A DNA stretch of 64,000 nucleotides from Spirochaetia bacterium (GTDB taxonomy: Bacteria > Spirochaetota > Spirochaetia > CADAEX01): positions 160,954-224,953 of the forward strand of contig CAXXHA010000029.1 in the NCBI GenBank assembly GCA_963662265.2, read 5' to 3'. The notes under the pieces are model-generated. The model did no database searches, was not told the DNA's origin, and worked only from the letters and a program-made list of their open reading frames with translations. Positions within the stretch are counted from its first letter, which is position 1. Each line of letters opens with the position of its first letter. A program made the translations under genes and the position numbers. Shown here one piece after another: positions 8,192 to 17,558 of the stretch.

Positions 8192-9398
8192 TCAGTCTGA
8201 ATCCCTGTTCCTGTTTTTGAAATAATATTTTATCCCTTCAGCGAGACGGTAGAAGTCTTCCCTTTTGCTGTATAATCCCAGTGAAAGTCTCAGCGATTTG
8301 GATGCTCTTTCCTCATTCCTTCCCATGGCTGTTAGTACCTGGGATTTCCCCTTTATATTGTCCGAGCACGCGCTGAATCTGCTTAAACATATATTATTGA
8401 ATATGAGAAAAGAAATAAAATCCTCAATATCATATATATCAGGCAGGCTTATGCAGAGGACGCCGGGAACCCTGAGGGAAGGTGATTCAAGTATTATATT
8501 GTGAGGAAGGCTGGTGAGTATGGAAAGCCCCTCGGAAGTAAGTATTTTCAGCCTTTTATATTCACTGTCGCAGTTTTTTTTCAGCTGGGTAAATGCTTCT
8601 GACATTGCTGCAATTCCCGGCGTGTTTTCCGTGCCGGGGAAAAAACCGTTTTCCTGTTTGCCGCCGTCCCTGACAGGTTTCATCTGTATTGAATCAGGTT
8701 TGTAGAGAAGGCCGGTGCCTTTCGGCGCATATATCTTGTGGCTGCTCATTGCAAACATATCACAGTAATCAATCCATTCTTCAAGAGGAAGTCTTGGTAC
8801 TGCCTGCACAGCATCTGCAAATACAATACCCCCTGCATCCGCTATTCTTGAATATATTTCTTTGACAGGCTGTATACCCCCTGTTTCATGATTGACCGGG
8901 GAATAAACGCAGATGATTTTTTTATCCCTGTTTTCTGAAAACAGCCGATGCAAGGGTTGAAAGGTCAATTCTTCCCTCTTCTGTTACTTTCAGTATTTTA
9001 TAGCGGTGTCTCGGGAGTTCTGTTATGTTTTTAAGGACAGATGAATGTTCTATAGCTGTTGTAAGGAAGAATGAATCATTAAAGGTTTTATATAGGCCTT
9101 TTATTCCCGTAAATAGGGATTCGGAACCGGAAGATGAAAAATAGAAATGATCCGGATTCTTCCCGAAAAAATCTGCAATATTTCTCCTGCAGTTATCCAT
9201 AGCCTGCCAGGCGACAACTCCCGAGGCATGGTAGCTTGAGGGGTTTGCCCAGTGCTCTCTGCATGATTTTTCAAATGCGGCAATTGTTTCCTTTAGAACA
9301 GGAGTTGTCGCATTATAGTCCATATAAACAGTACCTGACTGTGCATAATTTTTAATTTTAGTCAGCAACTTTTTTTTTCTTTCACAATTACAAGCCAT
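8192..9398 (-). CDS. Cysteine desulfurase family protein (IscS/NifS-like); one frameshift near 8950
   Basis: YMDYNATTP, ANPSSYH, EHSSV, NHETG, DAVQA, SSHKIYAPKGTG, GTENTPGI, SAC. Two ORFs overlap at 8922-8968. Confidence 0.85.
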
Positions 9399-9637
9399 AT
9401 CGATATTTATTTTAAATAAGGAATTATGTCAATTCTTTTCAAGAATAATTATTAAAATATGTACATACAATTAATGTTTAAATTGGAATAAGTTATTTAG
9501 CATGTTATTACTGAACATGAAAATTAAATAAGCTGCAACAGGTTATGATTAAAATTAAACATATGGAGTAACTGTAAAAATCTTAATTCGGCCAATTTAA
9601 TAGAATAAAAGTACAATATCTGATATATTAATTCCTG

Positions 9638-10814
9638 ATGAATAAATATACAGACAGAATCATGGATATTTATGATCCTCCAATAGTGAAATTCAAGGCT
9701 GAAGCTGAAAAGCGAATTGACAGAAGCAAAACTGTAATCAATCTGAACCAGGCAGTCCCCTTCCTATCCTGCGCCTGTTGAAATCACAGATGCGGTGAGA
9801 AAGGAGATTGAAAATCCATCATATTCCTTTTATACAAAGGATGAAGGGAAAGATGAACTGAGACAGAGAATATCTGAAGAGGTAAATGCAATGTTTTCTG
9901 TAAATACAGAAATGGAAAACATATGTGTAACCTCAGGGGCAAATAATGCCTTCTATTCAATTCTTCCGGTAATTGCGGAATCAGGTGATGAAATAATCAT
10001 ATTTACCCCGTATTACTTCAACCACTACATGTCAATAAAGGCATACGGAATTGTACCTGTTGAAGTTTGCTCTTGATTCTGATGATAATTTTTCAATACC
10101 ATTTGAAGTTCTGAAGGAAAAAAATAAACAAAAGGACAAAGGCAGTTGTATTTGTCAATCCTTCAAATCCGACCGGAAGGTCCTACAGCATGGAAGAGGT
10201 TGAAAATCTTCATAATTTCTGCATGGAAAATAATATTTACCTTGTAAGCGATGAAGTCTATACCCATTTTCCATGATGATTATCCCATGCAGGGTTCTGT
10301 CATGAGGCTTGATGATTTCCTTGATTCAAGAACTGTGTGTATAAATTCCTTTTCCAAGATATACAGCATAACAGGGCTGAGGGCAGGTTACATAACAGCT
10401 TCTTCCGGTTTTATAAGGCAGTTTATAAAAATCCAGGATTCAAATATTATCTGCGTATCATCTCTTGCACAGGACAGCAGCTCTTGCCGGAATGGATAAA
10501 ATGTTCATCATGGCTTGATGAAAAAATAAGGCCTGATGAGAAGAAAGAAGGAAATGTTTTTAAAACTGTTTGCGGAAAGAGAATCAATGTTTAAAATTGT
10601 ATCATCAGGTTCTTTTTTCCTTTATCTCAATTATGATAAAGAGATCGGATCTGAAGAACTCTGTTACAGGATGATTGAAAAGGAGAATATTGTTTCACTT
10701 CCCGGAACCTGCTTCGGTTCTGACCAGGGGAGGGCTTTGAGGCTTGCTCTTGGAAATGTTGAAAGTGCGAATATTCCTTTTGTAGTTGATAAACTGACAG
10801 GTTTCAGTATCTGA
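9638..10814 (+). CDS. PLP-dependent aminotransferase class I/II; about 7 single-base insertions (sequencing error or pseudogene)
   Basis: Reconstructed MNKYTDRI...INLNQAVP, TSGANNA, PYYFNH, NPSNPTG, SDEVY, SFSKIYSITGLRAG, PGTCFG, LRLALG across shifting frames. Confidence 0.8.
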
Positions 10815-10855
10815 AAACAGGATGGAATTATTAAATAATAAACAGGAGTAACAGC

Positions 10856-11401
10856 TTGGATACAAATAAAACAGATATAATAAAAAAGTATTTCAATACA
10901 GATAATGTGATATTCAGTTTCGATAAAAAGATAAAGCTTGATGAATCTGCATATTCGCCATTTTTTATTGATATAAACGGGAATACTGTCCCATCCCGAA
11001 GAGAGGGATTTCATAAAAAAAAACAGCTCTGCAGTCTTCTTGAAAAAGAGGGAATTGATTTTGATATTGCAGCAGGAGCCGACCATTCAGGCATACCGTT
11101 TACAGTGGCTGTAAGCGGAAATTACGGTAAACCTCTTGTATATATAAGAAATTCCAACAAGAAAACACGGTAAAACAGAATAAAACAGAAGGAAGAATAT
11201 CAGGCGGAGAAGATGCTGTCCTTTTTACAGACTACTATTCATCTGAAGAAAAGATAAATTTCGCAGTTGATGCTCTCAGGGAATCTGATGTGAATATAAA
11301 AGCTGTTCTTACTGTTTTAAACTATTCAGATGAAAAAGAGTATGATGGGATAAAGATCCTTTCCCTGTTTTGATAAAGATGATTTTTTACTGATGCTGTA
11401 A
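10856..11401 (+). CDS. Divergent OPRTase-like (PyrE paralogue) protein lacking the PRPP-binding loop; frameshifted
   Basis: SD AGGAG then TTG. After homopolymer correction: SPFFID, FDIAAG..SGIP, KPLVYIRNSNKKHGKQNKTEG, AVLFTDYYSS, SLFDKDDFLLML*. Confidence 0.65.
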
Positions 11402-11412
11402 GGGATAAAAGA

Positions 11413-12129
11413 TTGGCTTCTGATGAAATAATCAGGAAGCTTGAAAAAGGCAAAGATAATGTTGCAGCATCATACAATGAAAGCATGGTAAGGGAAGGGG
11501 CTGAAATACTTCTTGAAATAAATGCTGTTTCACTCTCTGTTTCAGAGCCTTACAGGTATGCCTCCGGTATACTGAGCCCGATTTACTGCGACAACAGGCT
11601 TCTTATCTCATATCCCGATAAATGGGACAGGATTATTGATTTCATGATAAACCTGATTGAAACAAAGATAGGAATTGAAAATTTTGATATCATAGGCGGG
11701 ACATCTACGGCAGGTATTCCCCATTCAGTGAAAATAGCGGAAAGGCTAGATAAACCACTTGTTTATATAAAGTCGGATACCGGAAATACCGGCAGGATGT
11801 CTGAAATAGAAGGCAACATGGTCTCAGGCAGGAGAGTTCTTATTATTGAAGACCTTATCAGCAAGGGGGGCAGCGCGTTGAAGGCTGTCAAAATGGTAAG
11901 GGATAAAAACGGTATTGTAGATTACTGCCTTGCTATTTTTACTTATGAAATGGAAAGCAGTAAAAAGGCATTTGAAGAAAACAGCTGCAGAGTTTTTACT
12001 GTTTCAAGGTTTTCGGGGCTGATAGAAACTGCGGCTGAGAAAGAATATATAAACAGCAGCGAAATGGAAAAAGCGCTTGACTGGAACAGGGATCCTGAAA
12101 ACTGGGGGAAAAAACATGGATTTGAATAA
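11413..12129 (+). CDS. pyrE: Orotate phosphoribosyltransferase with atypical catalytic loop
   Basis: ASGILSPIYCDNR, GTSTAGIP, VLIIEDLISKGGS, AIFTY; immediately upstream of pyrF. Confidence 0.88.
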   Translation: MASDEIIRKLEKGKDNVAASYNESMVREGAEILLEINAVSLSVSEPYRYASGILSPIYCDNRLLISYPDKWDRIIDFMINLIETKIGIENFDIIGGTSTAGIPHSVKIAERLDKPLVYIKSDTGNTGRMSEIEGNMVSGRRVLIIEDLISKGGSALKAVKMVRDKNGIVDYCLAIFTYEMESSKKAFEENSCRVFTVSRFSGLIETAAEKEYINSSEMEKALDWNRDPENWGKKHGFE

Positions 12130-13066
12130 TAATTTTGCAGACAGACTGCTGAATGCTATAGATGAAAAAAAGAATCCTTCTGTAGTGGGGCTTGATCCGA
12201 ATCTTGAAAAAATGCCTCCACACATTGTTGAAAAATACCTGGGCGGCAGGGGGTTTGATCCTGAGGCCGCATCAGATGCAGTACTTGAATTCAACAGGGG
12301 AATTATTGATTCTGTATGCACAATTGTACCTGCGGTTAAGCCGCAGATTGCCTATTATGAGGTTTTCGGGGAATTCGGTATAAAGGCATTCCGTGAAACT
12401 GTGGAATATGCTAAGGAGAAATCGCTTCTTGTAATCGGCGATGCAAAGAGAAATGATATAGGATCGACATGCCAGGCCTATTCAGATGCATTTCTCGGAA
12501 AGGTTAAAATCGGAGACAGCGAAGAGGAGATTTTCGGTGTTGACTGCCTCACTGTGAACGGTTACCTGGGTTATGACGGGATTGAACCGTATATAAAAAA
12601 CTGCTCGAAATACGGCAGGGGAATATATATTCTTGTAAAGACATCGAATAAGGGATCTGAAGAATTTCAGTGTATATCATGCGAAAAAGGGACAAACTTC
12701 CAGATTATGGGAGAACTTGTATCTTCCTGGGGTGAAGAGCTTGTAGGAAAGGAAGGCTACAGCTCTGTAGGCGCTGTTGTCGGTGCAACATTTCCGGAAG
12801 AAGCTGAAATACTCAGAAAACAGATGAAAAAAACACTTTTCCTTGTTCCCGGGTACGGCGCACAGGGGGGGACTTCAGATGCTGCAGTCAACTGCTTCAA
12901 TCCTGACGGCAGAGGAGCGATTGTGAATTCATCCAGGGGAATAATATATGCGTGGATGGGTAAGGGCGATGGAAAAGACTATAAAAAATACACAGAGGAA
13001 GCTGCACTTGAAATGAAAAAAGATCTTGGAGCAGCCCTGAAAAAGGGGAATAAATACAGATGGTAG
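12116..13066 (+). CDS. pyrF: Orotidine-5'-phosphate decarboxylase (type 2)
   Basis: VVGLDP, KPQIAYYE, DAKRNDIGST, VKTSN, VGAVVGAT, LVPGYGAQGG, NSSRGI. Confidence 0.95.
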   Translation: MDLNNNFADRLLNAIDEKKNPSVVGLDPNLEKMPPHIVEKYLGGRGFDPEAASDAVLEFNRGIIDSVCTIVPAVKPQIAYYEVFGEFGIKAFRETVEYAKEKSLLVIGDAKRNDIGSTCQAYSDAFLGKVKIGDSEEEIFGVDCLTVNGYLGYDGIEPYIKNCSKYGRGIYILVKTSNKGSEEFQCISCEKGTNFQIMGELVSSWGEELVGKEGYSSVGAVVGATFPEEAEILRKQMKKTLFLVPGYGAQGGTSDAAVNCFNPDGRGAIVNSSRGIIYAWMGKGDGKDYKKYTEEAALEMKKDLGAALKKGNKYRW

Positions 13067-17024: not shown

Positions 17025-17558
17025 ATGGATATGAAATATGATATTAACGGAGCAATAAGAAAGGTAAAGGATTTTCCGAAAGAGGGGATACTTTTTTATG
17101 ATATAACAAGTGTGCTTTCCAATCCGGAAGCTTTTAATTACTGTCTTGATATTATGGAAGAACGTTACAGGAAAAGTCCTGTTACCAAAATAGCAGCAGT
17201 AGAGGCACGGGGATTTATATTTGCATCTCCACTTGCAGACAGGCTTAATCTTCCTCTGGTGCTTGTAAGGAAAGCAGGAAAGCTTCCGGGGGAAACTTTT
17301 TCAAAAAGCTATTCACTTGAATATGGAGAAGACAGGGTGGAAATACAGAAATGTGATGTCAGTAGTGAAGATACATTTATTGTTATTGATGATCTTATTG
17401 CTACGGGAGGCACAATCAGGGCAGCTTGTGATCTTATTTCTGAAAACGGCGGGAAAATTGAAGAAATATTTGCTCTTGTCGGACTTCCCTTTCTTAATTA
17501 TGATCAGGTGCTTAAGGATTATTCAGTTAAAACTGTTGTAAATTATGATCATGAATAG
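17025..17558 (+). CDS. apt: Adenine phosphoribosyltransferase
   Basis: DFPKEGILFYDIT, EARGFIF, RKAGKLP, YSLEYG, IDDLIATGGT. Confidence 0.95.
   Translation: MDMKYDINGAIRKVKDFPKEGILFYDITSVLSNPEAFNYCLDIMEERYRKSPVTKIAAVEARGFIFASPLADRLNLPLVLVRKAGKLPGETFSKSYSLEYGEDRVEIQKCDVSSEDTFIVIDDLIATGGTIRAACDLISENGGKIEEIFALVGLPFLNYDQVLKDYSVKTVVNYDHE

Follow-up and report, generated by a model that had tools for sequence, protein, structure and literature searches.

Positions 10856 to 12129 (+ strand) of a 64,000-nucleotide (nt) stretch of the genome of a Spirochaetia bacterium (i.e., the window; GenBank assembly GCA_963662265.2, contig CAXXHA010000029.1, positions 160,954 to 224,953 of the forward strand) hold a gene for a tandem orotate phosphoribosyltransferase (OPRTase), pyrE'-pyrE. 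Ordinary OPRTase is a homodimer with two shared active sites, in which the substrate groove of one subunit is covered by the catalytic loop of the other. The gene described here encodes two OPRTase-like domains in a single chain, and we consider it highly probable that this chain is a fused double OPRTase with reciprocal half-sites and one composite active site.

Gene structure and assembly errors

The gene starts with TTG at 10856 and ends with a stop codon at 12127 to 12129. A direct reading of the sequence places a ribosome-binding site (AGGAG; 10844 to 10848, + strand) 7 nt 5' of the start, and a relative of the window's organism (G001) likewise has a TTG start with AGGAG at the equivalent place. 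The gene occupies 1274 nt in the window, eight of which are surplus homopolymer bases; removal of these bases leaves 1266 nt (i.e., 421 codons plus the stop), which corresponds to the length of P0004, an intact and near-identical protein of 421 amino acids (aa) from another assembly.

As the window stands, its open reading frames (translation table 11) divide the gene into a 105-aa frame (10856 to 11173), which has the TTG start behind AGGAG, and a 238-aa frame (11413 to 12129), after which the frame of pyrF follows. In a three-frame translation, the upstream OPRTase-like reading changes frames. Frame 1 carries it as far as ...YIRNSNKK (11141 to 11164), where the frame shifts, and the reading resumes with KQNKTEG...AVLFTDYYSSEEK (11173 to 11253). 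The upstream part in frame 3 (KQNKTEGRISGGEDAVLFTDYYSSEEK...ILSLF) is followed by three stops, past which this frame is open into the downstream frame (...FFTDAVRDKRLASDEIIRKLEKGKDN...MVREGAEILLEINAV...).

The frameshifts are errors of this assembly, as the surplus bases are missing from the read contigs of three studies. We compared positions 9600 to 12200 of the window with Logan contigs of four public runs, of which X1 and X2 represent one sample, which may be the source of the window assembly, and X4 and X6 represent two other studies and are independent of that sample. The X1 and X2 contigs span this region completely, with no substitutions and 16 gaps (i.e., one- or two-base surpluses of the window). 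Bases absent from the contigs were listed at 9757, 10066, 10118, 10267, 10472, 10498, 10530, 10824, 10979, 11015 (two bases), 11165, and 11172; all of these positions lie in homopolymer runs, and each of the gaps listed corresponds to window sequence missing from the contigs. X4 exhibits the same listed gaps except for that at 10118, and X6 exhibits eight of them, including those at 11165 and 11172. Within the gene, the surplus bases at 10979 (one), 11015 (two), 11165 (one), and 11172 (one) are absent from the X1, X2, and X4 contigs, and the last two of these positions are also corrected in X6. The remaining surplus bases probably lie near 11370 (one T) and 11386 (two Ts), exact places that were deduced from the alignment with P0004 and from the homopolymer context.

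The original prediction for this locus described two adjacent pyrE paralogues, the upstream one disrupted by extra As at about 11162 and 11172. These two As are borne out by the contigs of all four runs, which omit one base at 11165 and one at 11172, whereas the surplus bases at 10979 and 11015 had been overlooked. The suspicion that the junction at 11368 to 11401 is also misread was correct: across the stops of the window, P0004 has ILSLFDKDDFTDAV, a reading consistent with one extra T near 11370 and two extra Ts near 11386. P0004 aligns over the entire span, with 91% identity to the window over residues 94 to 421 and 84% over residues 1 to 102, where the window frame is locally wrong, and it continues through both breaks of the window (...NSNKKHGKQNKTEG... 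and ...ILSLFDKDDFTDAV...). At the loop break, P0004 and the orthologues of G001 and G002 read ...KKHGKQNKTEG.... Positions 10856 to 12129 are one continuous gene, and the description as two paralogous genes has to be given up in view of the reads, P0004, and all 18 of the 18 genomes of the same family described below.

Two domains with reciprocal motif losses

The C-domain (11485 to 12126, + strand) has the body of a Bacillus-type OPRTase, as indicated by its similarity to Protein Data Bank (PDB) entry 3m3h (E = 3.9e-44), by Foldseek, and by matches to the NCBIfam models NF001729 and TIGR00336. Its hood (ASGILSPIYCDNR; 11560 to 11598, + strand) and its phosphoribosyl pyrophosphate (PRPP) motif (VLIIEDLISKGGS; 11836 to 11874, + strand) are intact, and P239, Y241, and R245 of the former and E329 and D330 of the latter are invariant among the tandem proteins aligned. 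The loop of this domain (YIKSDTGNTGRMSEIEG; 11764 to 11814, + strand) aligns with that of 3m3h and is degenerate (3m3h ...yvrskakghgkgnqieg... opposite G001 ...yiksetgntgkmseieg...). In one genus, the C-domain loop is nine residues shorter, with the N-domain loop still canonical (...RSAAKDHGKKNRIEG...). P0004 scores 163.2 with TIGR00336, above the cut-off of 106.8, and the G001 protein scores 248.2 with NF001729, above the cut-off of 245. The C-only frame of the window remains under both cut-offs (99.3 versus 106.8 and 180.5 versus 245, respectively), an example of how profile cut-offs can miss such genes. Among the NCBIfam models matched, none is dedicated to tandem OPRTases.

The N-domain (approximately residues 1 to 196; 10856 to 11450, + strand) is, by its profile and PDB matches and its AlphaFold2 (AF2) model, a divergent OPRTase-like domain whose own substrate site is degenerate. 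Its PDB matches include the OPRTase domain of the human enzyme (2wns; E = 4e-13) and the Salmonella and E. coli enzymes (1sto, 1lh0, and 1oro; E of approximately 4e-4 to 2e-3), and an OPRTase profile finds this domain in the G001 protein at residues 10 to 203 (140 bits). A Pfam scan of the N-domain pieces in the window returned no family, the domain being recognizable only in the intact orthologue. Its catalytic flexible loop (11141 to 11193, + strand; supported by the contigs, P0004, and conservation) reads YIRNSNKKHGKQNKTEG when the surplus As at 11165 and 11172 are removed. The hood is degenerate, with SPFFIDIN (10955 to 10978, + strand) replacing SG..SPIY.D.R, as is the PRPP motif (AVLFTDYYSSEEK; 11215 to 11253, + strand). 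The motifs had been described in this way for both copies, i.e., a downstream copy with hood and PRPP motif and a degenerate loop, and an upstream copy with a canonical loop after removal of As and without the PRPP motif and the SG of the hood, and this description holds. The two domains are joined by an approximate linker (residues ~196 to 206; 11450 to 11484, + strand), which coincides with a dip to 69 to 78 in the predicted local distance difference test (pLDDT) at residues 190 to 210 and with length variation among orthologues (399 to 490 aa). The linker comprises approximately 25 to 45 low-complexity residues in the family genera g2 and g4 (loci L009 to L011 and L008) and approximately 10 in the genus of the window.

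To quantify these losses, we assembled 54 distinct complete tandem proteins (5 of 59 were dropped, i.e., two duplicates and three partial sequences), aligned their domains to a profile of 90 single-domain OPRTases, and then counted the motifs. The N-domains retain the loop Arg in 54/54 cases, the Lys in 53/54, the His-Gly in 51/54, and the Glu-Gly in 54/54, while the PRPP acid pair is found in 2/54, the [ST]xG turn in 3/54, and the hood in 10/54. The C-domains present the reverse: hood in 52/54, acid pair in 54/54, and [ST]xG turn in 49/54, with the loop Arg and the full loop in 1/54 each. In the single-domain controls, the acid pair is present in 90/90 and the strict loop pattern in 76/90, the remainder being close variants. 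The strict reciprocal pattern (i.e., only the loop in the N-domain and only the PRPP motif in the C-domain) occurs in 48 of the 54 tandem proteins, counts that overstate independence since the proteins are kin (approximately 30 of the 54 come from this spirochaete family) and that represent a conserved pattern rather than independent events. The original prediction had proposed reciprocal losses, and this pattern holds in most of the tandem proteins under these strict criteria.

In an alignment of 38 tandem proteins (A1), the only invariant N-domain columns are R97, K101, G104, E110, and G111, all of which belong to the loop, and H103 is conserved in 90% or more of the sequences. The invariant C-domain columns are P239, Y241, R245, G279, E329, D330, S337, Y361, W407, and W414. 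Outside the loop, the N-domain is the faster-evolving half: in the 18 genomes of the family, mean identity is 42.4% for the N-domain and 62.1% for the C-domain, and 149 of the 153 pairs are less similar in the N-domain.

Of the tandem forms, P0016 (437 aa) is the least degenerate: hood and loop are intact in each half, the change is confined to the PRPP motif of the N-domain, and its halves share 40% identity. It may represent a living intermediate. P0104 is the only protein whose N-domain has both elements of the PRPP motif, and the N-domain of P0045 has the acid pair only. These two proteins form a separate tandem lineage, in both members of which the C-domain loop is shortened, and they may reflect an independent duplication. 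P0027 is very divergent, and three further exceptions deviate only in the strict turn.

Distribution and history

The same arrangement was found in relatives. We searched 31 genomes with the downstream frame, and in 18 of the 18 genomes of the same family (four genera) there is one open frame of 399 to 490 aa with both domains, in each of which the OPRTase profile detects two domains; such consistency is not due to chance. The G001 protein is 78% identical to the window over the C-domain. Other genomes of the same class carry a single-domain PyrE with a canonical loop (L020 to L023) or PyrF-PyrE or PyrE-PyrF fusions (L024 to L029), and in a 201-genome sample of the phylum, the tandem form occurs in this family alone (G000, i.e., the source genome of the window, and G004). 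Frames of 452 to 484 aa in another family were considered as tandem candidates, and the three that were fetched proved to be PyrF-PyrE fusions (L110 to L112). The phylum has four OPRTase architectures (single domain, PyrF-PyrE, PyrE-PyrF, and tandem PyrE'-PyrE), and the nontandem ones seen keep the canonical loop.

Beyond these genomes, a C-domain pattern search of genome contigs yielded 80 loci, of which one is tandem (L030, from an uncultured Spirochaetaceae metagenome-assembled genome [MAG]), and the range was not widened. When the G001 N-domain was searched against 1.84 billion representatives, 1793 matches were obtained at E <= 0.001. The best 150 of the 1793 include approximately 45 two-domain proteins of 365 to 502 aa with very varied composition, as well as a 701-aa protein (P0026) in which an OMP (orotidine 5'-monophosphate) decarboxylase (PyrF) precedes a tandem OPRTase pair, the N-side domain without the PRPP motif and the C-side domain with a degenerate loop. 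Beyond Spirochaetota, tandem forms include P0020, from a Candidatus Helarchaeota MAG, and P0023, from a MAG of Planctomycetota, each annotated just as orotate phosphoribosyltransferase. The ESM Atlas contains a 437-aa "Orotate phosphoribosyltransferase family protein" cluster (score, 0.96), which serves as a lead only.

A FastTree phylogeny of 134 domains grouped 31 of 35 N-domains together (support, 93) and united 36 of 39 C-domains in a clade (support, 95), and in a quick IQ-TREE analysis of 100 rows, the 26 main N-domains fell on one side of a branch, and the N labels and C labels required two changes each. The trees exclude partial domains and near-duplicate rows of the family, their rooting is arbitrary, and their support is moderate. 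Subgroups of the family recur in both halves. From these arbitrarily rooted trees, a single old duplication and fusion appears likely, with P0045 and P0104 as a second lineage. A broader reading, on which we are evenly divided, is that tandem OPRTases constitute an old, widespread, and hitherto undescribed structural class of this textbook enzyme (i.e., a natural single-chain pseudoheterodimer) present in Spirochaetota, Planctomycetota, and Asgard archaea, which arose by stepwise reciprocal loss of half-sites after duplication and fusion. The N-domain PRPP motif would have been lost first, followed by the C-domain loop Arg, the N-domain hood, and finally the whole C-domain loop. If this is true, one site per pair of phosphoribosyltransferase (PRT) folds suffices, the vacated N-domain pocket is free for allostery, and intermediates such as P0016 are extant.

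Predicted structure

The AF2 model of P0004, computed with alignment A1, has a mean pLDDT of 90.5 and a predicted template modeling score (pTM) of 0.71, the latter only moderate for the placement of the domains, and contains two PRT folds with the same order of secondary structure elements. Foldseek searches of the PDB returned single-domain OPRTases only, with TMt values of 0.90 to 0.94 (2aee, 3dez, and 4rv4) and TMq values of <=0.49, so no solved chain spans both halves. A two-chain prediction of the C-domain (residues 203 to 421) with the N-domain (residues 1 to 196) scored 0.90, compared with 0.01 for the best of three controls; a score of 0.90 was attained in 58 of 80 solved complexes and in 2 of 110 mismatched pairs. 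Since OPRTase homodimers have already been solved, the predictor may have reproduced these known structures, and the score is to be taken as likeness to the dimer, not as binding. The runs had at least 78% of contacts in common, and partner pLDDT was at least 89. The predicted interface is pseudo-twofold: C-domain residues 285 to 299 meet N-domain residues 79 to 87 and 44 to 47, and this is mirrored by N-domain residues 90 to 95 with C-domain residues 248 to 251. N-domain residues 90 to 97 and 110 to 113, which include the loop flanks (97 and 110 to 113), are predicted to contact C-domain residues 245 to 251, beside the invariant hood Arg245. From these models, we infer that the halves pack like an OPRTase dimer.

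Gene context and predicted function

The tandem gene is the sole strong pyrE match in its own genome and in five of five relatives examined (two of these genomes being single contigs), and no other OPRTase candidate exists in these genomes. An adenine phosphoribosyltransferase gene (17025 to 17558, + strand; NF002636, E = 5.6e-61) is the only other match to the pyrE profile in the genome, a weak one, and lies at an equal distance from the tandem gene in relatives. Immediately downstream is pyrF, encoding OMP decarboxylase (12116 to 13066, + strand; Pfam PF00215, E = 3.1e-22). Its ATG at 12116 lies within the tandem gene, giving a 14-nt overlap that suggests translational coupling, and the order tandem OPRTase-pyrF is common to relatives. 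The genome also contains pyrD and pyrB.

The tandem protein has an OPRTase PRPP motif and hood in the C-domain and the flexible loop in the N-domain only. Its chain contains no OMP decarboxylase domain: pyrF is a separate frame, and a Pfam scan of the G001 protein returned PF00156 alone. The PRPP synthetase model ribP_PPkin (TIGR01251) scored 27.4 bits against a cut-off of 113. As the sole OPRTase candidate, encoded by a gene that overlaps pyrF in a genome with pyrD and pyrB, the protein is predicted to catalyze the conversion of orotate and PRPP to OMP.

Proposed mechanism and alternative explanations

Two OPRTase "subunits" fused in one 421-residue chain, directly 5' of pyrF, would divide the work of the enzyme. 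The C-domain retains the substrate groove, made up of the SG..SPIY.D.R hood and a PRPP motif containing the Glu-Asp pair, without a loop, and the N-domain retains the loop (Arg, Lys, His-Gly, and Glu-Gly) without its own groove. The chain would fold as an intramolecular pseudodimer with a single composite site, in which the N-domain loop would close over the C-domain groove, and would make OMP for the adjacent PyrF. The original prediction had named a single-chain pseudodimer with one composite site as its second option, and this option is supported by the single gene, the reciprocal losses, the invariant N-domain loop, and the predicted packing. In the E. coli and Salmonella enzyme, the active site is common to both subunits, loop residue K103 is essential, and loop residues R99, K100, K103, and H105 and groove residues D124 and D125 (E. 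coli numbering) are those mutated to inactivate loop and groove (bioRxiv 10.1101/2025.01.14.632917, citing Ozturk et al. 1995). The same statements are made for the Mycobacterium tuberculosis OPRTase in another report (PMC5430920).

Several observations weigh against a strict division of labor. The N-domain retains one Asp of the old acid pair in 41 of the 54 tandem proteins, plus a conserved ..HSGIPF.. segment, and residual ligand binding is therefore possible. In the genus of the window, the C-domain loop retains its length and its ..EIEG end, and the NF001729 score of P0004 (241.7) is slightly under the cut-off of 245. The pattern has exceptions, i.e., P0016 (both loops kept), P0104 and P0045 (N-domain acid pair), and P0027 (no strict loop). 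To these are added the kinship of the proteins counted, the moderate pTM, and the possible contribution of the known homodimer structures to the complex score.

The alternative favored by the original prediction, in which two separate genes encode two subunits of an obligate heterodimer, finds its basis in the separate 105-aa and 238-aa frames of the window as it stands. Their separation, however, is due to surplus homopolymer bases that the read contigs of three studies lack, P0004 and 18/18 family genomes have one frame, and none of the 90 single-domain proteins among the best 150 of the 1793 matches lacks the acid pair; we regard this arrangement as exceedingly improbable. The several frameshifts in the window, the likewise broken aminotransferase gene adjoining it, and the faster evolution of the N-domain could also be taken to mean that the upstream copy is a decaying pseudogene, leaving the downstream PyrE to function by itself as a normal homodimer. 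This is very improbable: the frameshifts are not in the reads, the N-domain stays in frame across four genera and distant phyla with invariant loop residues, and the C-domain is without the loop Arg in 53/54 proteins and without the loop altogether in one genus; the essential K103 of E. coli OPRTase is a loop residue (bioRxiv 10.1101/2025.01.14.632917).

A different possibility is that the N-domain is mainly regulatory or stabilizing, i.e., that its dead site binds a nucleotide or PRPP, or that it replaces the dimer partner, with its loop unneeded for catalysis by the C-domain. Regulation of an active enzyme by a dead paralogue has precedents, for instance the trypanosome prozymes, and the retained Asp (41/54) and ..HSGIPF.. 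segment would suit such a role. Nevertheless, the invariant N-domain residues come from the loop only and none from the old pocket, the hood is lost in 44/54 and the 5'-phosphate turn in 51/54, and the C-domain has no loop of its own, all of which makes this explanation unlikely as a replacement for loop donation. A regulatory role is compatible with loop donation and would be an addition to it, not a true alternative. The original prediction had also raised a regulatory function of the dead site, which none of the present tests supports. We therefore retain the fused double OPRTase, in which the N-domain loop would serve the C-domain site of an active, one-site enzyme.

Comparison with known systems

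The fold of both halves, the hood, PRPP, and loop motifs, the predicted twofold-like interface, where a loop from one unit meets the groove of its partner, and the pyrF context are all shared with homodimeric PyrE (E. coli and Salmonella, 1oro, 1sto, and 1lh0; Bacillus anthracis, 3m3h and 4rv4). The homodimer, however, consists of two identical chains with two full sites, whereas the tandem protein would have one chain and one complete site because each half lacks the complementary element. The logic resembles the mutant complementation of Salmonella OPRTase (Ozturk et al. 1995, as described in bioRxiv 10.1101/2025.01.14.632917), in which loop-defective and groove-defective partners are complementary; those subunits were engineered and separate, while the tandem arrangement occurs in nature, as a fusion, and is conserved in more than one phylum. 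PRPP synthetase also has two type I PRT-like domains in one chain, a tandem duplication as in the tandem OPRTase (PMC6332680). It catalyzes another reaction and belongs to another family. To our knowledge, no loop-for-groove division of labor exists in PRPP synthetase.

UMP (uridine 5'-monophosphate) synthase and the bacterial PyrF-PyrE fusions, which occur in the same class and phylum (L024 to L029 and L110 to L112), unite the last two steps of UMP synthesis. They combine OMP decarboxylase with a complete OPRTase domain that has its loop, in contrast to the tandem protein, in which OPRTase is joined to a second OPRTase and pyrF is separate. In the trypanosome prozymes (AdoMetDC and PRMT1), the active copy needs a catalytically dead duplicate, as proposed for the tandem OPRTase; the prozymes are separate subunits that relieve autoinhibition or act as scaffolds, whereas the dead copy of the tandem OPRTase is fused and is proposed to give catalytic residues directly.

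OPRTase, shared active sites, pseudoenzyme domains, and tandem PRT folds are all known already, and it is the fused reciprocal variant that appears to be new. The literature searched, which left out most subscription-journal papers and supplements, contains no description of a tandem, duplicated, or pseudodimeric OPRTase, in agreement with the original remark that no natural example was known. OPRTase is a model for intersubunit active sites and half-of-sites behavior. The latter is reportedly the subject of work by McClard (2006) and Gonzalez-Segura (2007). A natural fused form with one complete site would offer a direct test of the need for the second site of the homodimer, and the tandem OPRTases would provide graded living intermediates for the way in which duplicated subunits divide a shared site. 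Current annotation labels these proteins plainly as orotate phosphoribosyltransferase or, where an assembly has errors as in the window, splits the gene.

Neighboring genes and assembly quality

Because of the cluster of surplus homopolymer bases at 9600 to 11400, the aminotransferase gene that lies 5' of the tandem gene (9638 to 10814) appears as five or more separate frames; G001 and G002 have this gene intact. On another contig of the source genome, the pyrD match (C18:39212-40054) contains five stops, which suggests that there are further patches of such errors in the assembly. On the practical side, this stretch of the assembly needs polishing. Directly 5' of the error cluster, at 8192 to 9398 on the - strand, two overlapping frames (8192 to 8968 and 8922 to 9398) look like one split gene.

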